Of a DNA stretch of 53,646 bases, positions 14,901 through 49,395 are shown piece after piece. Position 1 is the first letter of the stretch. Every line of letters starts with the position of its first letter. The position numbers and the translations under genes were made by a program. Source of the DNA: Catajapyx aquilonaris (Eukaryota); contig JYFJ02000689.1 of assembly GCA_000934665.2 (NCBI GenBank), forward strand, positions 62,001-115,646, written 5' to 3'. A model generated the notes under the pieces. The model made no database searches. It was not told where the DNA came from and worked only from the letters and a program-made list of their open reading frames with translations.

Positions 14901-15306
14901 ACGATGGCTCCGTCGCAGATTCTGACAGCCGTCGATACCTCGGAGGAAAAGTCGACATGTCCAGGCGAATCGATTAGGTTAATTAGATATTCCTGCTCGT
15001 CTTGCGATACATGCGTTAATGCGATTGCGCTGCTCTTCATCGTAATACCGCGCTCCTGCTCGTCCTTCCTGCTGTCCAGATATCTGCCGGAAACATAACG
15101 TGTTAACATTAGTTCGTTAACGCTTTTTCAATAATTACTGACTTCAGTTTCCCTGCCAGCCTCTGCGAGATGATCCCGTTGCTTGCGACGAGACTGTCGG
15201 CTAAAGTTGTCTTCCCGTGATCCACATGAGCCAGAATACATATGTTGCGGACATTGCTCGGATTGTGCTGCAACGACGACAGCTTCTCCGTGCTAACACA
15301 CGGCAT
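11933..15306 (-). CDS. EFL1: Elongation factor-like GTPase 1 (EFL1/EFTUD1/Ria1), multi-exon; final exon(s) not found in this window
   Basis: ATG at 15306: MPCVSTEK...[151 protein letters not shown]. About 10 short GT-AG introns keep the frame. The last visible exon ends at a donor G|GTGAGT (11933/11932). Confidence 0.95.
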
Positions 15307-15409
15307 CCTGCAATCACAACAAATATATTCAGAAATGTGGTACTTCTTGCACTTGTTTCTGTGCAAAAAAAACTTCGTAATTAGACTTGTAAAGTAATTA
15401 AAAGTGTCA

Positions 15410-15780
15410 GCATGCCGGGACTTTAAATAGAACGAACCTGGCTGTTTTTTTTCTTTTGTGAGGGCTTGGGCTTTACCTGATGGTTTATCTGCCTCTGGGC
15501 GTTCCTGTGGGCCGGTAGGTTTGGGGCGGAACTCGGGGCGGAACCAGGGGCAGCTCCGGAGCTCTCTAATTACAATTAAAAGTAAATGAGAGTTGGGCAT
15601 GCCGGGACTTTAGACACTTGTTTTTTCTTAAAGAGTAGAAGGAATGTTGGGTTGTTTGTGGCTTACCTGATGGTCTAATGGCCTCGGGGCGATCCCATGG
15701 GCGACCCTAGGGTCCAATAGGTTCGGAACTAAACCTAGGGGCAGAACCTAGGGGCGGAACTAGAGGCAACGGATCACCTG
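15410..15780 (-). repeat. Two tandem copies of a ~190-bp module (GC-rich exon-like block, CAG|GTAA donor, conserved TAAAGTCCCGGCATGC), probably EFL1 5'UTR exons
   Basis: + strand gcatgccgggacttta at 15410 and 15597; ttacctgatgg donors at ~15476 and ~15666; ggggcggaac sub-repeats; an acceptor ttgcag|G lies just before the EFL1 ATG. Confidence 0.65.
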
Positions 15781-15949
15781 AAGATGTTGCACATGCTTAT
15801 GAAACATGCATATTTTTTTAAATTCATATTTATTAAAAGCAAGCCTCCCCTCTGTTGCTCTCTAAAATTATTTAAACGTTAAAAATGGCATTTTAATGTT
15901 TAATATTTAATAATTTTTTATATAACTAATTTCGAGATACATCTGGTCA

Positions 15950-16280: not shown

Positions 16281-16489
16281 TTAAGCCCTGACACATGTCC
16301 ACGGACGGACACACGAACAGAGCCGTTCTACAACCACATTTTTCGATGAGTAAAAGTCATCTTTGTTTGTCTGTAATTTTATTTGTAAAATAATTAGTAA
16401 AGCTACAATGGTCAGAATGTAATGTAGCCATTTTTTTTTTTTGGGGGGGGGGGGGGGGNGGGGGGGACATAAAATGTATACATAGCACC

Positions 16490-17599
16490 TCATTTCTTGT
16501 CAATATTATTTGACTTTTTGCTGTCAACGGGACGCGGCATCGACGACGGTACCCATTGAAGCATAAAGTCATGGCTGTCGATCGTCGGATCCTCCAGAGC
16601 ACCGCGAATGTTGTCATCGACCAGACTCATGTGAGATGCTCCTGGGATCAATTTCCCGCTGGACTTGTTCTCCTTCGGCGATTCTTCAGCAGGCATCTTC
16701 AGATTCACATGAGACACTGAGGATTGTTCGCTGGACTCATTGGACTGATTCCGACTCATCCATTCGTCGGACTGCTTCTCCTCTTGGGACATCATACGCA
16801 CCACGGCCGGCTGGACCATCATGGACAGTTTGGGCATTTCGTCTACGACAGTGCCTTCAGATGCCTTCGGTCCATCCATAGGAGCCAGCAGTGTCACCAG
16901 AGACAAGTCGGGCTCATCGCTGCTCTGGGACATCCAAGTCAGGACGCTAACCTGTGAGTCCGAACGACTCAGACTCCCCTCGGGCGTACCCTGCTCGCTG
17001 GGAACAGTCGACACTGACGTCCCGCTTACTGTCCAGGACCTCACGCTAGGCTCGGACGCCTCGGATATGAGGCTGGTCCTGGACAATCCAACAGACAGCA
17101 TCTCCATTTCGGTCATCAGATGCTCGCTGGACAGCCCGAGCGTCCGGCTTATGTCGGATGCCTCGCTTTCTTCCTCCGTCTCGGACCCAACGCTAATACG
17201 TGATACGGTCGTCACGGCGATGTCGGACGTCCCGGAACTCAAGCTGGACGTCTCAGCAGCCGCCTCTGAATCCTCCGGTCCTAGCTCGGACAACGCGGCC
17301 GTCAACTCCGCCTCGGACATCCAGGCGATCGGGCTAATCTCGAACAGCGCGTCCGCCAGGTTCGTCCTGGACATCCAAGCAGTCGGACCCTTCTCGTACC
17401 TCTCCGTGATCTCTTGGCTAATCCTGTCCTTCCTGTCCTGTTCCGCCTTCTGCAGAGTCTGGAGTGCTGCGCGGGTCATTTCGGCCTTCACAGCATCCAG
17501 GACGCTGTGGTCCTCAGTCTTCGTCTTCTTCTTTGTCCGAACTGCTTCGTCTAAGTCGGGGACACCTTCGATTGGTCTTTGGTCGAACAGGGTGTCATG
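16490..17599 (-). CDS. Uncharacterised Ser/Glu/Thr-rich, probably disordered protein; large terminal exon (~370 codons), upstream exon uncertain (possibly ~17710-17894)
   Basis: Long GC-rich ORF beginning after the acceptor ttcctgcaacag|CATGAC (HDTLFDQRPIEGVPDLDEAVRT...), stop at 16490; repeated WMS motifs; no recognisable domain. Confidence 0.6.
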   Translation of the reverse strand, partial: HDTLFDQRPIEGVPDLDEAVRTKKKTKTEDHSVLDAVKAEMTRAALQTLQKAEQDRKDRISQEITERYEKGPTAWMSRTNLADALFEISPIAWMSEAELTAALSELGPEDSEAAAETSSLSSGTSDIAVTTVSRISVGSETEEESEASDISRTLGLSSEHLMTEMEMLSVGLSRTSLISEASEPSVRSWTVSGTSVSTVPSEQGTPEGSLSRSDSQVSVLTWMSQSSDEPDLSLVTLLAPMDGPKASEGTVVDEMPKLSMMVQPAVVRMMSQEEKQSDEWMSRNQSNESSEQSSVSHVNLKMPAEESPKENKSSGKLIPGASHMSLVDDNIRGALEDPTIDSHDFMLQWVPSSMPRPVDSKKSNNIDKK

Positions 17600-18074
17600 C
17601 TGTTGCAGGAAAATTTGGGTTTAAAAAAAACACACACAGTCGAGGAGATGGTAGCAGAACCTGAAGCTAAAATTAGCCTCATAAGGCCTTCTCTACGAAT
17701 AATTAGGCACCAACTTGCCAAAAATCATTTGGCATCGAAGCGACATCCAACGGTGAGGTGCAGAAGTAAGCGAGTCACCACCCAGGAGGTGGCGCCCTGG
17801 CGCCCGGAACGGCGGAAATGAGAACTCCGTGGAACGGACGTGGTCGGGTTTCTTTTGCGTTGTTTTAAAAAGTTTTACAAAGTCCCTCGGCATCGTTTCC
17901 AAAAAATAAAAGTGGTTTGCAAACATAGAAAACACTGGCAAAATTTGGACACCACTCCCAAATCTGTAGGCCGTACGGTGCGGGAGGAGTTTCCATAACA
18001 GTCGGCTTTTAATAATGTAGATTATCGCTCTAATGGACTGACAAGTGCGGAGGCTAGTTTCAGCTTCATGTCTG

Positions 18075-26077: not shown

Positions 26078-29000
26078 TTAAAGGTAGTCGGACAGGTTAG
26101 CAGGTACACTTGTTACGATTGGGGCCGTGGGGAGGCGGTTGTCAGTCGATCTGAAGGAGAGTCGGACTTCAGATGGGGTCGGAAGAGGCGGTCTGTAGTG
26201 CCACAAGGGCCTCTTCTTCAGAGGCTTAATATCTTCACCAGCCTCCTCAACAAGCGAGGGATCTACGCCTTCCATCCCGAGATGGAGGGACAGGTCATCT
26301 CTGGGGTACATGGCCCACAACCTTGCTAAGCGACGATACTCTGCTGTCTCCAGTTGTTCTTGCTGAGGCTTAGTGTACCTGGAGAGAGAAAAACAATAAG
26401 TACGTAGCGTAGATACCTCACAGTAGTTACTCACAACTTCAGGAGAAGCGAAGAGCAGACCACCGTAACCGAGCTGAGGGCCATTGCTGCTGAGGCCATC
26501 CACGGCTGAATGAAATTAAGCCGGTCACAATATTGATAACTATTCAGTATTCAGAGAGTAAATATTAACACTCACTTGTAGATATATATTCCACGGAGCA
26601 AACACACCTGCCGCTAGCGGTATTCCGATGAGGTTATAGAAGCTAGCGAACACAAAGTTCATCCGGACACGCCGCACCGTAATGCGGGATAGATCCAGGC
26701 AGGCCACCACGTCCAGCAGGTCGTTCTGCAGGTTTAAATTTGTTGTAGCCTCCGCATATGTCGGTACGTAACGACTACTCACCCTGACGAGTACGACATC
26801 CGCAGCCTCGATAGCAATGTCAGTCCCAGATGAAATGGCAATCCCGACGTCGGCTTGTGCCAGTGCTGGTGAGTCGTTCACTCCGTCTCCGATCATAGCC
26901 ACTCGCTGTCCGGTACTCTGAATCTCCCGTATCTTAGCCACCTTATGAGCCGGCAGGACTTCTGCATACACTCGGCTAATCCCCACCTGCTTGGCGATTG
27001 CGGCTGCGGTCTTACGGTTGTCCCCTGTGAGAAGCACGACCCCAAGACCCATCTTTTTGAGCGTAAAGATGGCCAGCTGAGCCTCGGGTTTCACTTTATC
27101 AGCCACGGACAGCATTGCCACCAAGCGATACTCGATTGCGCAGAGGACCACCGTCTGCCCCTGCTCTTCCATCTCTATCATGCGGCGGTTAGCTTCAGCC
27201 GGGACGTTAATCCCGTGATTCTCCATCCAAGCGCGGTTTCCTATCACAACCTTTCAGTCGGAAAGAAAAAAAGTGGATAAATCTCAGCACGGTATCAGAA
27301 GCAGGTAGTACGCACATTGTACCCGGACGATGCGGATGACTGGGTATTAGTCGAATCCATTGGCAAGAAAGTGTCAATGTCCACTCCCCCGATGATAATC
27401 GATTCAAAGGACCTTCCAGCCCCCTTCCTGTTGGCTGACTGATTGTTGTAGGGCACGAGACGGCTGGATTTCCCGGCAGCCTGTAGCATCTGGTCTATCC
27501 TGGACACCTGGCACTTCAGCCCGCAGCCAGGAACGGCTTGGAAATCGTGGCAAACCCCGCTGATTTCAGTCTGCAGTGTGTCCTTGGCGTAGCGGACTAT
27601 GGCCGATGCTATTGGGTGCTCGCTGTAGGCCTCGGCAGTTCCGGCTATGCACAAGAGCTTTGGAAGGGAGCACATGGACTCGTTGACGAACAAGCAGATC
27701 CGGGTCAGGCTTGGTACGCCGTACGTAATTGTGCCAGTCTTGTCGAACACAACGCTCTTAACCTGCCGAATATTTCATATGTAATTTTGTACAACATTGC
27801 GGTTGAATCTACTTACTTTATGGGCATTCTCAAGCGCTTCGGCACCCTTGATGAGTATGCCGTTGGAGGCTCCAACGCCAGTTCCGACCATTACGGCTGT
27901 GGGTGTGGCCAGCCCCAAGGCGCAGGGGCAAGCGATGGATAAGACGGTTATGGCGTATCGGAAGGCACGTTGAAAGATGATCTCATGGTCGTTGAAGTAG
28001 TCCAGTTCCGTCTCCTAAAAGATCCTCAAGGTGAAATGACGCCGATTGACAGTTTCAACAAATACTTACGGTAGGGCTGAGGTAACACAAGCTCACGTAA
28101 CCAAGCACAGTCCACACAAGCAGAGTCCCTAATGATAAGCCGATCACAATTGGGACAAAGTATCCGGCCACCGTGTCCGCCAGTTTCTGTATGGGCGCCT
28201 TGATGGCCTGAGCGTTTTCCATCAACTTTACTATCTGGGCCAGTGTTGTCTCCTCTCCGATGTGGGTTGCCTCAATTATCACGACGCCACACTGGTTGAT
28301 GGTTCCGCCTATGACCACTGACCCTGGTGCGCAAATTGGGGCAAATAATTAGAAAAGAATAACGTAACATTGATAATAAACAAACCTCACCGACTTTCTT
28401 CGGCACTGGCATCGACTCTCCAGTGATAAGTGACTCGTCGCAAGTCGAATTTCCATGCAGAACTTTGCCGTCCACAGGTACTTTAGACCCGGGCATGACC
28501 TGAAACAACTTAATTAATTTCACGTACAGGTAAGTCTTAATGTACCCACCTTAAGGAAGTCTCCACGCTGCACAAGCTCAACTGATATTTGCTGCTCGCT
28601 TAATATCTCGAATGCTCCGCCGACTTGTACGAGTATGGCTTCAGTCGGCTGGAGGGACAGGAGTTTGGCCAATGCCTCGGACGTCTTGCGCTGTATTTCA
28701 AGCGAGAATTATTTACGCAACAATGACGCTATGCATTACCGACCTTTGCAACATTTTCCATCCACCTTCCGAGCGAAATGAAGATCAGCAGCATGGGTGG
28801 CGTGTCGAAAAACGTCATGGGACTAGGCATTAACTGCATGATCATTGCCGCTATCAGGACACACACGGAATACACGTAGGACACGGTAGTGGCCAGCATC
28901 ACTAGGACGTCCATGTTCAGCGCATTATGCTTCAAGCCAATGTATGCCGCTATGTAAAAGTGACGCCCACCGATGAACTGCAAAAAAGTGAAGAGTGAAT

Positions 29001-29987
29001 TGTTTCAATCGCATGTTACTATCTCGGAAGGATCTCACCTGCACCGGTGTTGAGAGCAGGAAGAGAAGAAGATTTTCCAGCGACAAACCCAGCATGATGC
29101 AGTACGGCAATTTGCAGTGTTTTGCGTGACGTTCTGACTTGGGCGCAATGTACATGAAGTACGCCATGACGGCCATGCAGGGGATGCCAAACACTAGCGA
29201 TACGAAGAAGGCGTATTTCCACTTCTGGATTTCCTCGTGGTGGTCCAAGTAGGTCGAGTCGCGAGGTCCACCTGTCATTATCTCCACTTGGAAACCTAGG
29301 TTCTGAAAAAACAGGATCTGTACAAATATATTCACATTGATTATGATAAGATGCACTGACCTCTATTGTGTTAAGAATGTCCCGGGTTCCTGTTATGTCC
29401 GGATCAAACTTGAACAGGCCGATCTCTGTGGCAAGTGCGACCGATGCGTAATTCACACCAGGGATTTTCTTCACGTGGGATTCGATGTTCCTGACACAAG
29501 AGGCGCATGACATTCCCTTGATCTGAAGCTCCACTTCGCCTTCGCCTCTTGGAGGATAGTTCTCAGCATCAGCAGGGAATCCCAGGTCGGTTATGGAGGA
29601 AGCTATCCTGGCCGCAGAGGTCTTGTTGGGGTCGAAGTGGACCTCCGCAGTGGCTGCCACGAGAGCTACCGACGCACTCTCCACTCCGTCGATTCTTCGG
29701 GCATGTTTCTCGATAGCAGACACACAAGAAACGCATGTCATCCCCTTAAGCCGCAGAACACACTTTTGGAGTTCGGAATCCACTGCATCCTCGATTTCCG
29801 CAGAGGATCCAGATCTAACTGCACCTTCCCCGGATTGCAGCACATCTGCGACACCTTGTTTGCTTCCCATTGACACTTGCTTATTGGCACAATTGTTGCA
29901 CCTTGTGCCTTCAACGTGAAGCATGGATTCCGCCACATCCCCCTCATGTCCAGGCCTTGTTGGTTCATTTGTTTCACTACAACTCAT
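26078..29987 (-). CDS. ATP7: Copper-transporting P1B-type ATPase (ATP7-like), ~12 exons, intact frame; 2 complete plus 1 degenerate HMA domains
   Basis: GMTCVSCV and [11 protein letters not shown] motifs, [64 protein letters not shown] and MALSS transmembrane Cu ligands; all introns checked are GT-AG and in frame. Confidence 0.93.
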
Positions 29988-30060
29988 GGTCGTTGCAATA
30001 CCAAGTTGCTCAGCTTATCAAATCTGGTTCAGACTCTGTGTTCGCACTGGTTGCAGGCAG

Positions 30061-30340
30061 GTCAATGCGATAGCGCTCGTCTAATTATTACCCCATGCTC
30101 ATGTCTGCCGTCCAGGTGTCTGCGGACAAACAACATTCCATTAATAATTCGCTAGCCCTGCATTAATATTACTGACCTGCCTTCTCCAGCAGGCCTCCCT
30201 TCCCTTGCGATGAGTCTATCGGCCAAGGTGGTCTTCCCATGATCCATATGGCCTGATATGCTGTGCTCATCACTGTGGTTAAGCTACAAGACACACGGTT
30301 TCTCCGCTGTCATCAGCCGCACCATCCAGGTCACCAACTC
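30061..30340 (-). pseudogene. Decayed duplicate of EFL1 coding exons 1-2 with retained intron (30120-30176)
   Basis: [61 protein letters not shown] aligns to EFL1 [63 protein letters not shown]; same phase-2 intron starting GTCAGTAAT. Confidence 0.85.
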
Positions 30341-30828
30341 TGAAGAAAACAATGTGGTAATTAACATGTCAGTATGTACTTTTGTATTGTATCTATGCCT
30401 ATTTATGTATTTTAATATGTACACTAGGCCGGCTTGGATGCACTTTAGCCCCCCGCAAAATATTGCAGGTTTCCGTACATTTCCGGCACACATTTCCTGA
30501 AGCTCCTCGTCCATGGTCTGAGTCGAATGACACTATTCCTTTGGGTGGAGAAACATTTCCTTCAAGTGTAATTGAATTATGAAATTGCAAGTAATTAACA
30601 ATGAATTATATTTAAATTGGCAAGTGTTCCATTGTTGACACTTGTGTACGTACTCCTTTTTTTTGGAGGGTTTGGGGGATACCCCCGTTGTGTTGGGGGA
30701 GGTCACCTGAACCACGACAATAATAAAACAGTTGTGCGTGTACAGTATGTACTCCAATATGACTGTGTAAGAAGATGTGTAATTATTTAGTGCTTTTTAA
30801 AAAAATGCAAAAAACATTATGAGAAACC

Positions 30829-31010
30829 GCATGCCGTGACTTTAGACGCGTGTTCTAATCCACAATAAGCAGGGGCAAAACCGGGCCTTTTCCTAATGCG
30901 GGGCTTACCTAATGAGCCACCTGGCCCCGGGGCGATGCCTAAGGGCCGTCCTGAGGGCAGGAAAAGGGTACAGGGGGCAAAACCCTGGGCAGCTCAGGGG
31001 GCGAAGAGAA
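30829..31010 (-). repeat. Third copy of the EFL1-upstream module
   Basis: gcatgccgtgactttagac (30829), ggcttacctaatg (donor ~30908) and ggccccggggcgat match the 15597-15695 copy. Confidence 0.7.
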
Positions 31011-31483
31011 TCAGACGAGTGAAGAACGTTCGAACATGTTGCGCCCAACTGGTCACAAACCGACAACACTTTTTTAATTCCATTTGCTGCACATGAAAGG
31101 CCACCATAAATTATTATCTAACCATATGACTCAAAATATTTGTTAATAAAATATTTTATATTTAATTTATTTATTTATTTTACATGGCCCCTGGTTGGTG
31201 GTTGACATCGCAGCCTGCAGATGGCAGGGGGAAGTCGGGCGCAGGTGTCGCCATCTGTCGGGCATATTCCCTACTCTTGAGGGCGGGCGGCCGGTTTCGG
31301 TGGGAAATATGAAAGCCATGATGGTTGCTGCACAGTATTCTATAGTGTATGTTAACTCAAAGAATGACACTTCGTCAAGAAACCGTGAAGGCATTCGAAT
31401 TTGGCTGGCAGCAGTATCAAAGCACCCAATTGTTTGCGACGCAACATTGCCAACCGTCCGTCGTCGGGAGGCCAAGGTCAAGA

Positions 31484-31855
31484 GGCTCGATCTAGGCCCA
31501 CAGGATGACCCAAAAGTCTGTAGTATACAATCATACGAACTGCAGGTAATAATATCATAAACATTGTTAGTTTCCAGGTACACATTATTGCCACATGAAC
31601 CGGATGAACGGTGTTAACCTACCCTTGGGTTCTGGTGCTGGATAAGCGGAGCCGGAGTAGAAGAGTTGGTGGAGGTTTCACATAGGATGAATTCAGCAGA
31701 GTATAAGTCTGTTCTTGAAGAATCCATGCTTCCATCAGTACGTGCCGTATACCCATCAGAGGAGATGCCAATCATTCATTTTGTTCAAGACAACTCGTCG
31801 GTGCACACCTCGCGAGAAACATCCCAATGGTTCAAGGAACACCCCGATATCGTAC
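31484..31855 (+). mobile_element. Tc1/mariner transposase fragment (duplicated at 36657-36950)
   Basis: [55 protein letters not shown], a Tc1 DDE second-Asp region. Confidence 0.8.
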
Positions 31856-31869
31856 CCTCTCCATGTCCA

Positions 31870-32080
31870 CGTGTGGAAAGGTCTGCAGTGGCCATTATTC
31901 GACCACCTGGCCATGGGGGTTTTGTTTCTTGAACAATGTGGTCACAGCTGCAAAGTATGCTCTTCAAATCATCACATGCATGCTGCTAAGCGTGTCTTGA
32001 TTGTTGACTGGGATGTTCATCATGGAAATGGGGCACAGCGCGTGTTTGTGCTTTATATGTCAGTACATCGATATGACGAT
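31870..32080 (+). pseudogene. Class II histone deacetylase (HDAC6/10-like) catalytic-domain fragment with small deletions and frameshifts
   Basis: [11 protein letters not shown] / [17 protein letters not shown] / [20 protein letters not shown] / [10 protein letters not shown]. Confidence 0.8.
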
Positions 32081-32149
32081 AGGACAATGATCGTGGCGGA
32101 AGCACTACCACCAGCCCAGCCTACAGCACCTACTGGACCAAGGAGGGGC

Positions 32150-32485
32150 CACCACGTGATTGCCTCTGCCACCGTCCAAACCTCAATATACGGAAAGAGC
32201 TGGACAGCCCTGCTGGATGGGGGAGCTGTCTCTTCCGCCATCGACCGACGAGTCTGGATGGCCATACCCGACCTCTCTCACAACCATTCCTGCTCCCGGT
32301 ACGACGCCGCATCAAATTGCCAAATCAACTGACTGTGAGTGTCGTCCCTCTCGGACGCGTGACCTTGCCGATTCAGCTGGGAGTTTTGGTAGTATGGAGG
32401 CCCTTTCTCGTCGTGGAGGACTTGATCGTCCTCATAGTCATCGCCATGGACATTTATGCAGCTTATGGTTGCATCATCGATGGAT
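32150..32485 (+). mobile_element. LTR-retrotransposon aspartic protease remnant
   Basis: [15 protein letters not shown] ... PLGRVTLPIQLG...FLVVEDL..IVIAMD...YGCIID. Confidence 0.6.
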
Positions 32486-32669
32486 TGCTCCAGCCTGCTG
32501 TTTTCCGGCACCGTCGTATGGAACGAGAAAGACGTGCCCACTCCACATCCCTTCAGAATATACCATTCCGCATGTTTGAGAAGATACCCGTCCCATTCGA
32601 GGCCTTCTTTCTTCGGAGAATATCCGTAGAAGGGGTCACTCCCAATGTGACAGAGCTCCAGATGACTGG

Positions 32670-33135
32670 TATGTACAAGAGGCAGGAAGAGCTGGAAGCC
32701 AAGCTGGTAGCCCTCGAGAACCAATCCAGACGGAACAATTTAGTCTTTTTTGGTATTCCGGACGTTGAGCAAGAACAGTGGTTCGATACCGAAGAGAAAG
32801 TGAGGCTTCTGATCCAAGAAAAGAAGCTACATTTGGACCCCGCATCCATTGAAATTGAAAGAGCCCGTAGGTTAGGCAAGGTGACGGGTCACCGGCCGAT
32901 TGTGGTAAAATCCCTTCGTTTTGGAGACAGGGAAGAGGTAAAGTCGGGTAAAGTCCAACGCCCGAAACCTGAAGTCAACACACTACGGGGTCAGTGAGGA
33001 CTTCGCCCTCCCCACAAGGCAGGCACGCAAGCAGCTGATGCCCTGCCAGCCCTACCTGATTCAAGCAAAGAAGGGAGATTACCGAGCTCATCTGAAAGTG
33101 GACAAACTGAGGGTGAATGGTGCATGTATCCAACA
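32670..33135 (+). mobile_element. LINE ORF1 (coiled-coil + RRM, transposase-22-like) remnant
   Basis: LEAKLVALENQSRRNNLVFFGIPD...TEEKV...IEIERARRLGK...RPIVVK. Confidence 0.8.
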
Positions 33136-33481
33136 GATAAAGGCGAAACAGCCATGTATACACTTACAATAAAATATTTATGTTGCATGATTCCAATTCA
33201 ATTTACCAATTCAATACTGCAATGATTTTGACAGATTTTTACGACACATTCAAAATGTATGGTGCACCATGCCAGTAAATCATCAACACCTATCAATTTC
33301 AGGAGTTTTATCACTGCCGAGTCTTCTTATGTTACATAATGAAGGACATTTTATAATGATGATCGCAATATCTATTTTGTATGGGATAATCATGACAACA
33401 GCATTGGTCTGATTGTCACAAAATAATTCGAGGAAATGGTGCTGTCGATTGAATATCCGTTCTGTAATGGAGTTAAATATT

Positions 33482-33736
33482 AATATTGTGAAACATGTTC
33501 ACTGAGCTTGATATTAAAGAGAGAATACCGTCCTCTGATCTGAGTATTTTCACAAAATAAATGAAAATGTTTATTATATATGAAATATTAATTTCTGGAG
33601 GATATTATTATTGGTCATAATTATGTACTACAGGCAGGTCAATTCTCTAACACCGGTTCATACTCCTTCCGTGCCTCGCATCGATGACAGGGTGGATGTT
33701 TGGAAGGATCCCGTTACTTTGACACCAAAGACCTAT
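33482..33736 (+). repeat. ~250-bp direct repeat, second copy at ~37875-38119
   Basis: tattgtgaaacatgttcactgagcttgatattaaagaga...gacaccaaagaccta is near-identical at both loci. Confidence 0.9.
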
Positions 33737-34969
33737 AACATCTGGACATTGCCAAATAGACGGCGCGGAGGTGAACAAACGACAAAACTGATTTTACAGT
33801 TGTAAAAGGTGCCAAGTTTTTAAATCGACAAGCATGCAAACATAGAGAGGCAACATGTGAAAACGACGACAGGTATGAAGACCACACCAGATATGATAAG
33901 TTCCGGCCTATGTGGGCACAAGTGCCTCAAGAGTCGAAACCTTTTGGGAAGGGAAAAATGTTAAAAAGAAGCTTAAAAAGGCTAAAGAATGAGTGGCAAC
34001 GTAATGACAAGAACTGGATTAATAATCGATCAGACCAATCAATCCAAGGTGTTTTATAAGGATTGTTATTCACGTTTTCATGTAGGCTATGTTGAAAAGG
34101 TGACAATATTGACAAAAGAGATAGAATTGAACCCATTCCAGTTCCAGGCTAGTTCCAGCTAGTTCCAGGCTAGTTCCACGCCAGTTCCAGGCTAGAAGAC
34201 TGCACTCGCTGAAGAAGTGCAGGAGAAGTCTAAGAGTGAATGTACCTGGACGAATAGTATTGTTTGATTTTCTCTTTTTGCCTCCTGAGCAAAGACATTG
34301 AGATAACAATCATACAATAGCGTCATTGCTCCCGAGTCTTGTAACATTGGTACAGCTGTATTTGAGCTAATATGTACACCCAGAGCATGTATCCATCCAA
34401 TATGGCCCCTGGGGAATGAAATCAGGACGAGAAGAAAGAATCCGTCCAATTATGAGCAGTGAATCAAATAGTAATGATTGAAGATAACTATTAACGATTA
34501 TACAGTATATTGTGACAATCTTGCAGCAAAAATATCTACTCAATAACTATTCACAGCAGAAGGCTCCTAGCCGTGAAAGGAAGAGCCGACCCAGTCTACG
34601 TAAGACTAAGAGCTGACGTGGACATTGAGTGTTTTTATTTTTACGCGCATAGTGAAGTGGAGACATTGGATGACGTCACATCGTAATGTGAGTGTGCTGT
34701 TTGGGACCTTAAAGAAAACATCGGTCCAAGATAAGAAACGATCCGCATCTGGTACAGTCTGTTCAGAGTTGGGCCCCGAGCGAATACTACTAAGTCACCG
34801 ATCACCTACTTTAGGTCTGATTGTACCGTGTCCCAAACCCAGCCTGACCTTCAAACGAATGGATGGCAGCAAGACAAGACCGTGAAGCTGCCCAGGGGTA
34901 CACCCACGACAGCCTCATCAACATCGGTTCCAGTGTCATTATCAGCGATGGCCAGTGGCAACAACTATT

Positions 34970-36432
34970 TGTTTGTTAATACTGTGGTGTGTAACAGCCC
35001 GCATAAATGCATCACTCATAAAGCCATTGAAATACTATTAATTCTTCATTAGCAATTATTGTTGTCATATTTCTTGTGGTAGATAACATATTGTAGCCTT
35101 ATGGTTGCCACTTGCACCATAAAATTTCAATCAACAAATCACTCATTACATCCAGGCTTTGACCTTCCCCGACCACCACGCTTTGATGAAGACACGACCC
35201 TAGATGAGGAGACAAATTCCACACCCAACAGGACACAAGTTGCGGAATGTACGTACTCTACACTTTAATTCATCTGGCGGAAGTGTTGCAGTAACTGGGT
35301 GCTCTTTTATTTCTCAGCAGGCGACAGAATCCTGCTTAGCCCACGAGTTGTCATCAGTGACACAGAAGAGAGGACGAGAGCAGCTGCCTTGCCCCCTTCC
35401 ACCACATATGATGTATAGACACAGGTAGGCCATTTACCAGTATTACTCTGCATATGGTAGTAAAAAATTATGCTATTTGAAATGGTGATAGAGTGGCGTG
35501 GCCATTTAACATGTAATACAGAACTAACCTAATATGCAGTTGATGAATATATTGATTAACTGATTTTTAGGTAATCTTCATGGTGTACGTGGCGGTGCTG
35601 CCGAGAAATGGAATTCTTCCCACTTAACTCTGCTGACGAACAGTTGGCCAACACTGGTAATAAAATAATGTTGTATAAGCTATCCCATCAATACCTTAAC
35701 AAAGGTGCTTAGTCAGGGCCATTCCTTTTCCAGCATTCAATAGGAAAGCAATGCATGTTTGGATGACCATAAAGGAACAGAATAAACAAATAATTGCGCA
35801 AAATAGTGCCATCTTGGCATTGTTGAAGAATGGCAAGGAAGAAGCTGTGCAGAAGCTGCATAGAAAAGTACCACTTGGTTGTCCCACACTTCCAATGGAC
35901 AGCATCGATGACGTGACTAAAATGGAAGTTTTTTTTTGAGTAACGAGAAGAATTATGGCCTAATGGTAAGTCAAGTAATATTGTAATGTATTATGTTGTA
36001 AGTAACTGAAAATCATTAATGAATAACCTACAGTCTTTCTGCCTCAGCTTGGATACATAAGTGCACAATGTATTTCTTTCTTGAACTCAAATTGGAATGT
36101 TTTCACTTTTAGTGTGAATACCACCTGTCCTCACTCGGTGGAAATGGACTGGCAAATTCTGTCAACAACATACTAAGAGAGACTTTCACAAACAATCTGG
36201 CTGCAAGGTACAGTTGGAAAGGAACACGAAATGAAAAACATGCATTTGTTGGATTGACCTTCTCAACATACTGTCATAACACGTAAGTAATGTGATGTAA
36301 TGCACAACTCTTTCTGGTCATAAGGCAAACATTAGTCGCCCTGTCAATTGGAAATAATTATAACATTATTAAGGGGATTTTATGAAATCTTGGGATATTA
36401 CATCGAGAACATTCTACAGGAGGAGTACAAAC
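34970..36432 (+). repeat. ~1.45-kb direct duplication (copy 1) carrying intron-containing DUF4806-like TE-associated gene remnant
   Basis: Near-identical to 44072-45590; exons encode KVPLGCPTLPMDSIDDVTKME / LSSLGGNGLANSVNNILRETFTNNLAARYSWKG. Confidence 0.85.
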
Positions 36433-36539
36433 ATAAAAGGAGTAGGAATTAATTGACTTTTTATAAATGACAGATGAACACGTGGATCAGCGGAAGTTGT
36501 CACCTAATCGTCCTAGTAAATACGAGTTCCTACTGAGAG

Positions 36540-36950
36540 GCTGCTGAATGTGTCTGATGACGAGTTCTGGGAGAATGTGGCATGGCCAAACGAAAAGGTT
36601 TTCGTGTCATCTGCTGATGGACGCTGTATGTCATGCATGGCGCCCAGACGACAAGCGGCTCGATCCTAAGTAGGCCCACAGGATGACCCAAAAGTCTGTA
36701 GTATTCATACTGTAGGTAATAATATCATAATCATTTTTAGTTTCCAGGTACGCATTGCCACACGAACGGTGTTACCATTGGGTTCTGGGGCTGGATTAGC
36801 GGAGCAGGAGTAGAAGAGTTGGTGGAGGTTTCACCTAGGATGAATTCGGCAGAGTATAAGTCTGTTCTTGAAGAATCCATGCTTTCATCAGTACGGGCCG
36901 TATACCCATCAGAGGAGATGCCAATCATTCATTTTGTTCAAGACAACTCG
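36540..36950 (+). mobile_element. Tc1/mariner transposase fragment, second and longer copy
   Basis: FWENVAWPNEKVFVSSADGR (first-Asp region), then the same GAGVEELVEV...FVQDN segment as 31484-31797. Confidence 0.75.
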
Positions 36951-37229
36951 TAGTCGCTTCCGCGTGGTGTGCCCTGGTAACGTTTCCTGTGAAACGGCTA
37001 AACGACTCTGACTAGTGATTGGTAATGAATGAATACCGAGAAGCCCATAATACCCTTATTCGTCCTTATTAGATAACCCCCCGAATTAAAAAGCGAAATG
37101 ATGGGGGCACGTCAAAAGGGAGTGCCGCAAAAGGAGGGCAGCAGAGAACAATGACAAGTTCGTTCGTCTACAAAACATCTCCGCATGATGACACATCCCA
37201 AGTAAGTTTAGACAATCGGGTGATCATGA

Positions 37230-37530
37230 AAGCTCGCATTAGGAACATGCCAGCGATGCTCCTGATTGATACCGGAGCTAAAGCATAGCTTCCTGAAAGA
37301 TGATTTTGCCAGCCTCTGTTTGAAACTACGTGCAAGAGAGATGGACGTCCGGAGAACGGTACTGGCTACATCCCTAAATGTGAAATATATTCGACAGGCC
37401 AATCCTTTGAGGTGGATCTATATACCTCCTTCCCTTCGCCAACGTGGATGGGGTCCTCGGACTGGATTGGCTGCAGGCTTATGATCCGCTTATTGACTGG
37501 AAGTCACGTACAATGAGCGTCACGATCGGC
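37230..37530 (+). mobile_element. Gypsy protease remnant
   Basis: MLLIDTGAK..SF and VLGLDWLQAYDPLIDWKSRTM. Confidence 0.7.
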
Positions 37531-38299
37531 AGAGTAACCACCGACTTGGAAAGGTGTGACCCCGAGTATTTAGGCGAATGGTAACGCATGTGCCCTGCTG
37601 TCTTGTGAATCACTTCCAGCAGCATCCAGTCACGTCAGCGCCCCTGTTCCCGACCAAGTAGAGTGGGAACAAAGTCATGTGCTCCTGCTCTTCCTCTGCA
37701 TCCTCATGAACCTGCTACTGCATGTTGTGTGAACAGCAGTGTTTGGTTTCATCTCCCAGAGTGACAGTTTTAGTGCATTCTTCTGTTGACGAGGACTTAT
37801 TGTTTCATCATTCTCTTTTGTAAGAGTTGTCAGCAACATATTTAGAATCAAGTTTACTGTAATGGAGAAAAATATTATTGTGAAACATGTTCACTGAGCT
37901 TGATATTAAAGAGAATACAGTACTCTGATCTGAGTATTTTCACAAAATAAATGAAATTGTTTATTATATGAAATATTAATTTCTAGAGGATATTATTATT
38001 GGTCCTGTGTACTACAGGCAGGTCAATTCTCTAACACCGGTTCATGCGCCTTCCGTGCCTCGCATCGATGACAGGCTGGATGTTTGAAAGGATCCCGTTA
38101 TTTTGACACCAAAGACCTAACCTCTAATTAATATGACCAAGTACTACTGCCACACAGGGCATTAGGAGGTCTCCTGACAAAGTATTGTCAGCACTTCTTA
38201 TACGAAGGTAGCCTACATCTTCACAATGATGTGCACATACCACCAATTTCAACTCTGAAGCAGCCTCAAACATATCCGTTTCTCTGGAGATGTGACTGA

Positions 38300-38960
38300 T
38301 GTTGCGAAGGACAACTCATTTCGCTGAGACACTCCAGCAACAGACATCTCATTTCATCGCCGGCCTCCAGCGCAATTATGGTTCTTTGAGTGACTTGAGA
38401 AGGCTCATAAGCATTACGTTCCTATGTTTATGGGAATGGTTGCCACAGGATGACGACATTTTGGACAAAGTGAAGAATCAGGTTTCTAATGCACCAGTCC
38501 CGGTGTACTTGGATCACAAAAGTATGAACCAGTGCAACTGAATATTGCAGTCTCTCACCCCAAATGAGCTTGTGATTGACAATTTATTTACCACCTGACT
38601 ACCAGTTCGTCCTGTCAAACCGTACGTTGAGGCACACCAGAAATCCATCTCAGGCCGAGGACAACAGGACAATCCACATCCATAAATGCGATATCTCAAG
38701 AGATTCGCACCACCAAAGAGACACGAATATTACGTGCTACTCCCTGATTCGAGTGGCAGTTGGTGGATATAGCTGGAGCCGAGGCTGGAGTGACCTCATC
38801 CAGGGCTCTGAACACTACAGCGCCCGTTTTGACTCATCGACTGTGAAATCGATTTTCATATACAGTGAACAATCGTATCGGCCTTTATGTGGTGGTGTGA
38901 AAAACGGACTTACGCGATAGTGGTCGAATGCACCTTACATCGTCAGGTCGACCGCCCTGC
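38300..38960 (+). mobile_element. Degraded Gypsy RT/RNase H linker fragment
   Basis: SHFIAGL..LRRLI...WEWLPQDDDILDKVKNQVSNAPVPVYLD. Confidence 0.55.
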
Positions 38961-39479
38961 GATTAGAATGCGTGTGATTCTTTTTGGTTGCAAGTGCTCC
39001 TTTGATCCATGAAGCTGTGCACACGCAAATATGTAAAAAGGGGGAAACAACGTCCTTCTGGATATCGATTACATTTTCATCTTTCCTAACTGTCACTTCT
39101 CTCTCAGACTGTCCCTGCAGCAAATATGGCCGAAACCCCTCCACCGCCTGATGACCAAACAATCGAAGTGGAGGTACGTGTGCGACGTCAAGCCAGGCAA
39201 AAACAAATAAAAAAATAAAAAAATGTCCATTCTTATTTTAATTGCAGATTGAGCGCAACACAAGTTCCCGCTTTCTCGACGCCCTTCACGACACACCAGG
39301 AGTTGGCAACCTCCCAAGTGAATCGAATTGCCCTTGGTTTCAACCAGTCGACCCTCGTCGACTTGACTGGCGGCCACCAATCACAGGCGAGTTCCGGACG
39401 GTCTATTGACAGTCAACGCATTCGACGTTCAACCGGAAGCAGTGATTCACCCAATTACTTTCAGAGAATTGAAGGCAAC

Positions 39480-39630
39480 ATCCCCGAAACCAATCTGGAC
39501 TGCAGAAGAAGTGGCGTGCCTGATCGGCGCAAAGGGCAAACACAACCAATGGCCAGAAATCCCCGCAGAAGTGAACGGCGTGCATGGGAATAGCAGGAGC
39601 ATGCATGCAGTGAAATGCAAATGGAGCACG
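39480..39630 (+). mobile_element. Myb/SANT-like DNA-binding fragment (Harbinger accessory type)
   Basis: KPIWTAEEVACLI...QWPEIPAEVNGVHGNSRSMHAVKCKWSTL. Confidence 0.55.
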
Positions 39631-40060
39631 TTACAGGTCCGCAAGTGGGTCAATGAGTACAACATCGGTACCGGGCTCAATCCTGCATTCTTCCGGAAGC
39701 TGGAAGGGAGGGTTGCTGAGATGTCAGCCACGGAAGCCCAGTGCACGCTTGCCATGGATGCAATGTCGCTGATGGCATGGACTTAGTACGACTCCAAACA
39801 CGATGTGGTGGAAGGATACCAGGACCTGGGCTCCGAGGGTCGCACGTAGTCAGTGGCGACTGAGGCCCTGGTGTTCATGGCTAGGGGGTTGCACCAACAT
39901 TGGAAGGTGATGGTCGCCTACTACGTGTCCCGTGGGTGCGTCAATACGAACACTTTCAGCAAGCTGCTTGACCAAGTGGTGCAGAAGCTGCATGAAACTG
40001 GGTTGGTGGTTCGGGCGGTGGTGTGTGACCAGGCTCCGACTTACCGAGCAGTGTTTCGGA
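39630..40060 (+). mobile_element. P-element/THAP9-like transposase fragment with two in-frame stops
   Basis: CTLAMDAMSL..*YDSKHDVVEGYQDLG..*SVATEALVFMARGLHQHWKVMVAYY...LHETGLVVRAVVCDQAPTYRAVF. Confidence 0.85.
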
Positions 40061-40072
40061 ACAACCTCCTAC

Positions 40073-40169
40073 TAAAGGGTTCCATATAGAACTGAGTAAG
40101 GTTCTCCCTGGGTGACGGGCCAAAGAACCTTTCAAGGTTCTTTTTCGCACCAATATTTCTAAGAGCGTA
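40073..40169. mobile_element. Terminus of a non-autonomous CACTA/EnSpm-like DNA element
   Basis: aagggttcc..agaac, aaggttctcc and aagaacctttcaaggttc subterminal repeats ending tttctaagagcgta; resembles CACTCTTAGAAA-type TIR families as recalled. Confidence 0.45.
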
Positions 40170-40900: not shown

Positions 40901-41479
40901 GGACTCGTCTCGCAGATCAGTGCATCGACGAAAGATGTCTCGACCCCACCTGTTTCACTTCTCTCTCAGACTGTCCCTGCTGGAGCAAATATGGCCGAAG
41001 ACCCTCCACCGCCTGATGACTAAACAATCGAAGTGGAGGTACGTGTGCGACGTCAAGCCCGGCATACCATAACAGCTACTACCCTCCATCACTCCATCAC
41101 AGTGAATGTCTCGCCGCCGACACCACCAATCAAGACTGACTCCCCTGAGCTGTTCAGTGTCGAAGCACCCGATAAGGATGTGAATCTCCGCAGGGAGGAA
41201 TGAGAAAGGGAGCGAGCGCAGGAGGCCAATTATGGCGTGTATTCATCTTCAAGCCATGCCGAATATATGAATCTGCATTACACGAAGGTGGGGCAATAAC
41301 ACTATGAGTGCAATGTCGATGTACATGCTGTGTGAGCAGCTCCCATTCATGATAAGGAAATTTGTATCAAAGACATCGCCATATTTGCTGAATTTCATTC
41401 GGATACTTCAGATTTCTCAGTTGTTATTGTGGGCAGTAGTCTAACTGAGTGATGACAGCATATAGGGCAGCTCAGATTG

Positions 41480-43720: not shown

Positions 43721-45713
43721 ATGATTTCCAGAAGGCCCGCTGCAAGGCAAAGGATTCTGAATGGCTCACAGATCTGAATACCAGCACTCATGTGGGAGAG
43801 GAAGGCGATTATTTACCCAGGATAAGGCGAAGCCATCGTCGCAGAGTGAGAAGACATACCATCGATTCAGAAGGCGATGATGATGAAGCACTGCCAAAAA
43901 CACGCCACAATAAGAAATCTGCTATCTAGGTAAAGGTATGCCATCTAGCAAAACTACCAATTTTTTGTCTCAATCATCTGCCACATACTTTATGTCCAAG
44001 TACATCAACAACTATAATTATTGCTCATTCACGAAACGAAGTAATAAAGCGGAATGTGCATTGTGCCAGTATGTTTGTTAATACTGTGGTATGTAACAGC
44101 CCGCATAAATGAATCACTCATAAAGCCATTGAAATACTATTAATTCTTCATTAGCAATTATTGTGTCATATTTCTTGTGGCAGATAACATATTGTAGCCT
44201 TATGGTTGCCACTTGCACCATAAAATTTCAATCAACAAATCACTCATTACATCCAGGCTTTGACGACCTTCCCCGACCACCACGCTTTGATGAAGACACG
44301 ACCCTAGATGAGGAGACAAATTCCACACCCAACAGGACACAAGTTGCGGAATGTACGTACTCTACACTTTAATTCATCTGGCGGAAGTGTTGCAGTAACT
44401 GGGTGCTCTTTTATTTCTCAGCAGGCAACAGAATCCTGCCTAGCCCACGAGTTGTCATCAGTGACACAGAAGAGAGGACGAGAGCAGCTGCCTTGCCCCC
44501 TTCCACCACATATGATGTATAGACACAGGTAGGCCATTTACCAGTATTACTCTGCATATGGTAGTAAAAAATTATGCTATTTGAAATGGTGATAGAGTGG
44601 CGTGGCCATTTAACATGTAATACAGAACTAACCTAATATGCAGTTGATGAATATATTGATTAACTGATTTTTAGGTAATCTTCATGGTGTACGTGGCGGT
44701 GCTGCCGAGAAATGGAATTCTTCCCACTCTGCTGACGAACACTTGGCCAACACTGGTAATAAAATAATGCTGTATAAGCTATACCAGCAATACCTTAACA
44801 AATGTGCTTAGTCATGGCCATTCCTTTTCCAGCATTCAATAGGAAAGCAATGCATGTTTGGATGACCATAAAGGAACAGAATAAACAAATAATTGCGCAA
44901 AATAGTGCCATCTTGGCATTGTTGAAGAATGGCAAGGAAGAAGCTGCATAGAAAAGTACCACTTGGTTGTCCCACACTTCCAATGGACAGCATCGATGAC
45001 GTGACTAAAATGGAAGTTTTTTTTTAGTAACGAGAAGAATTATGGTAAGTCAAGTAATATTGTAATGTATAATGTTGTAAGTAACTGAAAATCATTAATG
45101 AATAACCTACAGTCTTTCTACCTCAGCTTGGATACATAAGTGCACAATGTATTTCTTTCTTGAACTCAAATTGGAATGTTTTCATTTTTACTGTGAATAC
45201 CACCTGTCCTCACTCGGTGGAAATGGACTGGCAAATTCTGTCAACAACATACTAAGGGAGACTTTCACAAACAATCTGGCTGCAAGGAACAGTTGGAAAG
45301 GAACACGAATTTGTTGGATTGACCTTCTCAACTGTCATAATAACGCGTAAGTAACGTTATGTAATGCACAACTCTTTCTGGTCATAAGGCAAACATTATT
45401 AGTCGCCCTGTCAATTGGAAATAATTATAACATTATTAAGGTGATTTTATGAAATCTTGGGATATTACATCAAGAACATTCTACAGGAGGTGTACTATGG
45501 GCGCCAAAAGAATTGACCGACGTTGATGGGTATATGGCACTATATACCCATCAACTCCGGTCAATTCTTTTGGCGCCCATAGTACAAACCAACATAGCAG
45601 GAATCACTGCTGCTGAAGTCATAAAAGCCATACAAGTGTACTTGAAACATGCACCAGAGGGACTTGCAAAGGAAAGGAAAAAGGCTCGAACCACTTCAAG
45701 TGGTACGAATTAA
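43721..45713 (+). pseudogene. DUF4806-like multi-exon TE-associated gene remnant (copy 2, more complete)
   Basis: Extra 5' exon DDFQKARCKAKDSEWLTDL and 3' AEVIKAIQVYLKHAPE; frameshifts and a MITE insertion; 44072-45590 duplicates 34970-36432. Confidence 0.65.
45495..45582. mobile_element. 88-bp palindromic MITE with TA target-site duplication
   Basis: TA[ctatgggcgccaaaagaattgaccg...cggtcaattcttttggcgcccatag]TA; the paralogous copy shows the empty site (gTAcaaac at ~36425). Confidence 0.9.
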
Positions 45714-49200: not shown

Positions 49201-49395
49201 TTATCTTTCTTTTTCACTGCTCAAACTGCATTGTACATTAGGCACACAATTACGATTTGGTTTGTTTTGTTTTTTGAAATTGTTTTGATGTATGTTCAAT
49301 ATTATATTGTAAGTCTCATAGTATTGCAAAGGAAGGCAAGTGCTCTCCGTCAATAGGGGAAAAACCCCAGACGATAATAAAAATTATAAATTAAA
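46270..49395 (+). mobile_element. Degraded non-LTR retrotransposon (RTE-X/CR1-group-like): ORF1, APE endonuclease, truncated RT
   Basis: ORF1 from 46404 (coiled coil, IDRAHRVG...RPLIAAF, IRDDFS); EN motifs GLIYLPP, LMGDFNAR, FTYLSSRGQSTID, GSDHLP; RT motifs KGVLQGDSLSPILF, QFAD-IVL (one Asp missing), YNYLG; N-terminal RT deleted; A/T-rich tail at ~49375. Confidence 0.88.

Follow-up and report, generated by a model that had tools for sequence, protein, structure and literature searches.

A stretch of 53,646 nucleotides (nt) from Catajapyx aquilonaris (GenBank assembly GCA_000934665.2, contig JYFJ02000689.1, positions 62,001 to 115,646 of the forward strand), which we call the window and number from its first letter, contains a gene for an ATP7-like copper pump and, directly upstream of it, a decayed copy of the 5' end of EFL1, a ribosome-assembly GTPase gene whose intact version lies 15 kb away. 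The intact EFL1, the ATP7-like gene, the relic and an upstream module that accompanies the relic are all encoded on the minus strand. That these parts form a chimeric gene assembled at the DNA level, with a layout of the type known from Sdic in Drosophila melanogaster, is well supported by the alignments described below. The features on which the argument turns are listed here from the pump gene outwards, followed by their EFL1 counterparts.

26078..29987, minus strand: ATP7-like P1B copper ATPase gene, 12 exons and 1078 codons, stop codon TAA at 26080-26078
29988..30045, minus strand: junction stretch, with an in-frame TAA (30017-30015) before the ATP7-like ATG, no upstream ATG (uATG) and no good splice acceptor
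30046..30119, minus strand: start of the next EFL1 exon in the relic (HLDGR...TSAIALT), frameshifted (net -7), 53/70 identical to EFL1
30120..30176, minus strand: relic intron, 57 nt, GT..AG, phase 2, homologous to the EFL1 intron at 15142-15084 (39/57 identical)
30177..30339, minus strand: EFL1 exon-1 relic, start-codon homologue at 30325, TAG at codon 14, P-loop remnant, 103/145 identical
30375..30825, minus strand: spacer without a counterpart at the EFL1 locus, inside a putative first intron (30908-30340)
30826..31000, minus strand: relic copy of the GC-rich upstream module of ~190 nt, whose 3' part holds a conserved 16-mer and a block resembling a 5' splice site
30829..30844, minus strand: the conserved 16-mer TAAAGTCACGGCATGC, a candidate cis-element
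30902..30914, minus strand: the CATTAGGTAAGCC block, whose GT at 30908 resembles a 5' splice site
15084..15306, minus strand: coding exon 1 (15306-15143) and 59-nt intron of the parental EFL1
15395..15790, minus strand: upstream module of the real EFL1, doubled in tandem and recognized as a repeat family and by three-way alignment

The ATP7-like pump gene

The ATP7-like gene was modelled from tblastn matches and GT-AG junctions, some of the junctions being set by reading the sequence. Its coding sequence carries no lesion in 3237 nt, and its 11 introns, all of 50-82 nt, are correctly phased. The predicted protein displays, in this order, a degenerate HMA remnant, two intact CxxC HMA domains (GMTC and GMSC, at residues 82 and 158) and the motifs TGES (448), CPC (563), DKTGT (607), SEHP (647) and GDGVND (870). 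A Pfam scan, which covered 136 of the 197 stop-to-stop open reading frames (ORFs) of at least 75 residues in the window (the other 61, mostly antisense or overlapping within gene bodies, were left out by hand), detected HMA in two stretches (E 5.6e-28) together with E1-E2_ATPase and Hydrolase. All the hallmarks of a P1B-1 copper ATPase (CxxC HMA domains plus TGE, CPC, DKTGT, an SEHPL-like motif and GDGxND) are present, and copper transport by the product is predicted from these motifs. The protein shares with the canonical animal ATP7 (ATP7A/ATP7B-type) the two core-adjacent CxxC HMA domains, all core motifs and the C-terminal tail.

It differs from the canonical form at its N-terminus. No more than 74 residues lie ahead of the penultimate metal-binding domain, compared with 270-411 in five insect ATP7s, and in alignments the protein lacks these 270-411 N-terminal residues of the insect proteins, including three further metal-binding domains; the 74 residues that it does have look like a collapsed HMA domain. 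ATP7 homology starts just past the ATG at 29987, and the in-frame TAA of the junction stretch lies 10 codons above that ATG. We scored splice sites with position matrices built from 20 introns of this window, a doubtful 42-nt EFL1 intron being excluded, and the AG dinucleotides between the in-frame TAA and the HMA remnant score at most 1.5, against a median of 6.4 for true acceptors. Searches of the window with two full-length queries, which took in the 23.6 kb upstream of the gene, yielded no further ATP7 exon, every match outside the gene having an E value of at least 1.2. A search for ATP7 N-terminal exons with six arthropod N-termini was equally negative: 25 of its 63 high-scoring pairs fell in 29300-30020, and the other 38 were extensions within the gene or had E values of at least 0.24.

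The protein is also more divergent than its relatives. Over residues 75-1000 it is 62-64% identical to insect ATP7s (61-64% to arthropod ATP7s), whereas insect ATP7s of different orders are 70-76% identical to one another. The EFL1 of the same window has no comparable deficit, being 63-68% identical to six insect EFL1s over 671 residues, where insects across orders reach 64-74% (two thrips EFL1s, from one order, are 86% alike). This gap of about 10 points suggests that the ATP7-like copy has been evolving faster than expected. In a protein search the best identity among 1052 matches was 49-60%, with no closer ATP7 in the collection. As for the shortened N-terminus, one account states that the function of ATP7 depends most on the two core-proximal metal-binding domains and that the peripheral domains have been reported to be autoinhibitory (PMC10973460); on that account, the two-domain form of the pump could be active and less restrained.

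The EFL1 relic and its upstream module

The real EFL1 is intact downstream to at least 11922 and has the Pfam domains GTP_EFTU, EFG_III and EFL1; the best matches of one of its exons are polyneopteran and thrips EFL1 sequences (73-78% identity), and the proteins of the window point to an insect or something closely related. The relic, at 30339-30046, corresponds to EFL1 coding exon 1, the phase-2 intron and the start of the next exon, as a decayed paralogous copy. When 29900-31300 was compared with the window by blastn, 30250-30196 paired with 15228-15174 (80% identity over 55 nt, E 6.7e-8), and weaker colinear matches covered the intron and exon 2 (30176-30105 against 15142-15069) as well as the upstream module (30854-30829, 30939-30902 and 30998-30974 against 15622-15535). 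Since the P-loop is conserved across all translational GTPases, what matters most is homology outside it. Under scoring suited to ~70% identity such homology is significant on both sides of the P-loop core (z 6.4 for the upstream part and 10.9 for the downstream part, with 0 of 1000 shuffles each), and the relic intron alone matches the EFL1 intron with z 7.3 (again 0 of 1000). Harsher scoring is less generous to the exon, its score being reached in 26 of 500 shuffles for the 5' part of exon 1 and 255 of 500 for its 3' end, against 6 of 500 for the intron and 1 of 500 for exon 2. Judged from these alignments, the relic is a true paralogue of the EFL1 of this genome, intron included. Because protein conservation cannot explain homology between introns, it is to be regarded as a DNA-level copy of that very gene, and it retains both of the things that such a copy keeps, a homologous intron and, as flanking DNA, the upstream module.

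Decay is advanced, the intron interior retaining 24 identical positions out of 42 (Jukes-Cantor distance 0.64). In exon 1 a CAG has become TAG at codon 14 and deletions sum to 15 nt, net in-frame; EFL1 homology stops at ~30046, inside the second coding exon and after ~80 codons, and no further EFL1 exons were found near the relic. With this stop codon, the frameshift in exon 2 and the short extent, the relic has no reading frame through the GTPase and later domains that a functional EFL1 would need. A processed (retro-) pseudogene was considered and rejected, given the presence of the intron and of the upstream non-transcribed module. In having an intron, upstream DNA, a stop and frameshifts, the EFL1 piece resembles an unprocessed pseudogene fragment; it differs from one in that it ends exactly where an intact, co-oriented gene without a 5' end of its own begins.

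Much of this had been read from the letters in an initial annotation of the stretch. Its remnant of EFL1 exon 1 upstream of the ATP7-like ATG, on the same strand, is borne out by blastn and by the shuffle-tested alignments, which also place homology beyond the P-loop. The change of CAG to TAG, the small deletions and the peptides, TSAIALT among them, are as it described, and so are the phase-2 introns of 57 and 59 nt, both of the form GTCAGTAAT...GCAG. It placed the end of the remnant ~75 nt before the ATG, a figure that needs correcting, as the homology runs on to ~30046, roughly 59 nt before 29987-29985. It also noted an upstream acceptor with a shared TACCACATT tract. The tract is indeed common to the relic and to the sequence upstream of the real EFL1, but its distance to the acceptor is not, the AG at 30341-30340 following it by 11 nt and the AG at 15309-15308 by 26 nt. 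Similarly, the upstream module that it saw before both genes exists, although the real EFL1 has two tandem copies of it.

In a three-way alignment the relic copy of the module matches 15585-15790 and 15395-15590, with a local score of z 8.6 that none of 500 shuffles reached. Within the window the module occurs once before the relic, twice before the real EFL1 and nowhere else. Over aligned columns, the relic copy is identical to the distal EFL1 copy at 113 of 154 positions and to the proximal one at 107 of 137, and the two EFL1 copies agree at 115 of 138. As these two are closer to each other than to the relic copy, the doubling of the module at EFL1 probably postdates the duplication that made the relic. 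Two short elements stand out in it. The CATTAGGTAAGCC block has two matches in the window with at most one mismatch, here and at 15660-15672 (0.11 expected; 0 of 100 shuffles gave at least two), and the pattern of the 16-mer TAAAGTCACGGCATGC matches only at the three module copies (0.04 expected; 0 of 100 shuffles gave at least three). We regard the relic module as a candidate promoter plus non-coding first exon. An RNA gene or tRNA-derived element was rejected as an identity for the module, with no Rfam match at gathering scores and no ARAGORN gene. The spacer that separates it from the relic exon (30375-30825) shows no homology when aligned with 15600-15340 (z 0.4; 148 of 500 shuffles). Further upstream, the similarity between 31400-31021 and 16300-15791 is weak and partly low-complexity (z 3.0; 4 of 500), and we treat that homology as unproven.

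Chimeric structure and possible use of the relic as a leader

At the junction two gene fragments lie in the same orientation, each truncated where it meets the other: the break in EFL1 falls within its second coding exon and that in ATP7 ahead of the last two metal-binding domains, and the fragments meet within ~60 nt. The EFL1 parent is the intact gene 15 kb away, and for ATP7 the nearest sequences are those at 49-60% identity in the protein collection. In this structure ~1.0-1.2 kb of the EFL1 5' end (upstream module, first coding exon, short intron and ~75 nt of the next exon) has been duplicated and lies head-to-tail before an ATP7 copy deprived of its own promoter and of the exons for its first three metal-binding domains. 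A local DNA-level duplication of the EFL1 5' end, joined to an ATP7 copy, is what the initial annotation had proposed, and the intron, the module and the 5'-truncated ATP7-like gene together support that part of its proposal well. The two parts have since fared very differently, the EFL1 part having accumulated a nonsense codon and frameshifting gaps in ~220 nt (57-76% identity) while the ATP7 part is fully open. If both stem from one rearrangement, a decayed relic beside a lesion-free coding sequence would imply that the pump has been held by selection and is transcribed from the EFL1-derived DNA upstream.

Two other origins were examined. When ORFs of at least 25 residues from 1-26500 were searched by tblastn against 30000-53646 for remnants of a tandem duplicate, seven matches had E values of 0.01 or less, the EFL1 exon-1 relic being the one meaningful match among them; this rejects a tandem duplicate that was simply retained, copies of the intervening genes being absent upstream of the ATP7-like gene. 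No inverted-repeat pair was found around the relic in 29000-40000, and thus nothing suggests that it was carried by a terminal-inverted-repeat element.

The single most likely use of the relic, in our judgement, is as a spliced non-coding leader that serves the ATP7-like gene from the EFL1-derived module, a tentative reading to which we give somewhat less than an even chance. Transcription would start in or near the module, and the EFL1-derived exon and its 57-nt intron would be transcribed and spliced, joining 30177 to 30119 and, probably, 30909 to 30339. The ATG at 29987 would follow a non-coding leader of ~295 nt with short upstream ORFs (uORFs), and translation would yield a copper pump with only the two core-proximal metal-binding domains. 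Several properties of the locus suit this. The relic donor, CAG/GTCAGTA, scores 12.0 (top 0.03% of GT) and is better than that of the parent, GAA/GTCAGTA; the acceptor before relic exon 1 (AG at 30341-30340) scores 7.2-10.2 (top 0.4-2.0% of AG); and the donor-like TAG/GTAAGCC of the module (GT at 30908) scores 7.0 on the matrix (top 2.3% of GT). At 57 nt the relic intron falls within the 50-82-nt class of all 20 modelled introns, and it has a TTAAT ~20 nt before its 3' end. The ~450 non-homologous nt would be contained in the first intron, and all seven uORFs of the putative leader stop at least 75 nt before the main ATG. The failure to find a native ATP7 5' end in the window also points towards a leader acquired from elsewhere.

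Other observations weigh against a leader. The acceptor of the relic intron is weak (-2.1 to 2.5), as 36-60% of AG dinucleotides score as high and only 1-4 of the 20 true sites score lower. With 7 uATGs where its composition predicts 4.8, the putative leader of 295 nt shows no depletion; that none of them falls in the final 100 nt ahead of the ATG would be expected just as well from a start site downstream of the relic. The ~450 nt without an EFL1 counterpart set the module further from the relic exon than in the parent, and upstream the tblastn comparison with 30000-53646 picked up neither AK-like nor iGluR-like gene copies, nor further EFL1 exons. By a rough estimate, the GT and AG of one intron would survive neutral decay at this divergence with a chance of ~0.3, and a similarly rough calculation suggests that the GT/AG pairs and the 16-mer (15/16) are preserved not significantly better than expected under neutrality. 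Intact sites beside a dead frame are, at such a chance, no proof of function. The initial annotation had relied on this very combination: its GT/AG dinucleotides and its dead frame are both there, but one of the splice sites that it called intact, the relic acceptor, is weak by the 20-intron matrix, and with the undepleted uATGs added the step from intact sites to function is a weak one when taken by itself.

Some of the same evidence suits a shorter transcript made from the same chimeric DNA. Transcription beginning inside or just after the relic, within ~130 nt of the ATG, would leave the relic outside the mRNA, with EFL1-derived DNA acting at most as a proximal promoter and the splice sites being neutral survivors. 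This would account for the uATG-free last 100 nt below a stretch with 7 undepleted uATGs, and for the weak relic acceptor. Decay has moreover produced an AT-rich TAATAAT at ~30092-30084, where the real exon reads GGTATTACGATG, and a TATA-like role for it is possible. There are precedents in Drosophila, where the Sdic promoter was, according to one source, likewise built from a former exon (PMC3395120) and where most promoters are placed by another within 50 bp of gene sequences (PMC5460883). Such a start would nevertheless leave an excellent donor and a strong upstream acceptor without a role, no recognizable core-promoter match has been established for it, and the only ready-made promoter at the birth of the chimera would presumably have been that of EFL1. 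We consider it unlikely, though less so than the alternatives that follow.

Much less probable is a full-length ATP7 that has its promoter and the exons for metal-binding domains 1-3 more than 23.6 kb upstream, outside the window; what looks like exon 1 of the ATP7-like gene would then be internal, and the EFL1 fragment would have inserted, without any role, into a long 5' intron. Insect genomes of large size often have long first introns, and the AGs at 30014 and 29977 score no lower than some true acceptors of the window. Against these stand the in-frame TAA, after which come only weak AGs (at most 1.5), the lack of any ATP7 N-terminal exon in the 23.6 kb upstream, the 50-82-nt length of all 11 ATP7-like introns, the degenerate state of the domain right after the ATG, and the ~10 identity points that separate this protein, and not EFL1, from its insect orthologues beyond their mutual distance. 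A fragment of ~1 kb landing within ~60 nt of an exon, on the same strand, in an intron of more than 23 kb would furthermore be a coincidence of about 0.3%.

We give an equally small probability to a leader in which the relic exon and intron are spliced as proposed while the promoter is not that of the module, the candidates being a repeat unit at 31493-33735 or AT-rich sequence at ~31130-31190. That unit belongs to a younger repeated family (copies 92-98% alike) and begins ~470 nt upstream of the module, and the ~450-nt non-homologous spacer marks the region as remodelled; the module, however, has kept its conserved blocks, and we see no positive evidence for any alternative promoter. Finally, functionless adjacency, with the ATP7-like copy untranscribed or dying and the relic as unrelated debris of a rearrangement-prone region, might be argued from the 34-residue HDAC-domain fragment in the repeated unit just upstream and the transposons across 39.8-53.6 kb, but it is scarcely credible for a gene whose 1078 codons are open, whose 11 short introns are correctly phased and whose catalytic motifs are complete, while the neighbouring relic gathered a stop and frameshifts in ~220 nt.

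Known chimeric genes and the setting of the locus

The closest likeness is to Sdic, formed from AnnX and Cdic, whose coding sequence is described as entirely Cdic-derived, with promoter elements that go back in part to an AnnX exon (PMC3395120). As far as that description goes, both cases involve DNA-level duplication and fusion of parts of two nearby genes; in both, the coding region comes from one parent, an exon of the other having turned into non-coding regulatory or 5' sequence; and each coding parent lost its 5' end and had it refashioned. The same source gives Sdic as less than 2 million years old, tandemly amplified and testis-specific, with an experimentally tested promoter, whereas the EFL1 relic is old (24/42 in the intron interior), was seen in a single copy and has kept the donor module and an intron. 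A second comparison is with Drosophila yakuba, for which 76 chimeric genes are reported among 1116 tandem duplications (PMC5460883). There too, in the cases described, a 5' piece from one gene has been fused to a 3' piece from another, the former bringing a promoter and transcription signals with it (PMC5460883). Those chimeras are young, segregating and supported by RNA-seq, and their second duplicate copy is still present; the EFL1-ATP7 locus, by contrast, has no second copy of the intervening genes upstream.

If the relic does serve as a spliced leader, the locus would be a clean, old, non-Drosophila case in which capture of a promoter and 5' exon rescued a 5'-truncated duplicate. A donor coding exon and its intron would live on, fossilized, in a spliced untranslated leader that can be compared with the parent gene 15 kb away, and the ATP7-like gene would amount to a natural experiment on ATP7 regulation, with a pump that has the two core-proximal metal-binding domains only. 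It would not add a new kind of mechanism, such chimeric genes being already well documented. A bolder extension, which we regard as decidedly unlikely, is that this gene is the only copper-exporting ATPase of its host. Insertion or duplication of the EFL1 5' end would then have severed the native promoter and the three peripheral domains, leaving the pump to be run from a ribosome-biogenesis promoter through a uORF-rich leader, in a constitutively less-restrained two-domain form, with its faster evolution (62-64% against 70-76% identity) as the aftermath.

Around these genes the window contains the following further features, as mapped by the Pfam scan, transposons extending from 39.8 kb to its end.

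16.5-21 kb: low-complexity sequence and AK-like gene
21.8-24.2 kb, plus strand: iGluR-like and LRR-like ORFs
39850-40086, plus strand: TNP-like RNase H domain, transposon remains
46701-49353, plus strand: LINE-type endonuclease and reverse transcriptase
51112-53644, minus strand: pol of a long terminal repeat (LTR) retrotransposon (reverse transcriptase, RNase H, integrase) in long open frames

Between the AK-like gene and EFL1 lies a 376-residue ORF rich in Ser, Glu and Thr (16493-17620, minus strand) that has no Pfam match and may be a terminal exon of the gene upstream. Nearby, at 16440-16470, a long C run with an N, followed by an A run, forms a homopolymer stretch that looks assembly-uncertain. 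Tandem and dispersed repeats of ~100 and 207 nt occupy 2654-3728 (families D2 and D6). On the other side, just upstream of the relic module, the ~2.2-kb unit at 31493-33735 has a shorter copy 5 kb away (36671-38119), in which blocks are 92-98% identical; the HDAC-domain fragment of the first unit sits at ~31979-32080 (Pfam E 1.3e-9), inside a 213-residue ORF. A repeat of ~1.4 kb occurs at 34970-36428 and 44072-45495, with blocks 95-100% identical at a spacing of ~9.1 kb, and the pair probably represents two copies of a mobile element. An 85-nt repeat pair adjoining the TNP-like fragment (39115-39199 and 40980-41064) is 94% identical, its members lying 1.9 kb apart.

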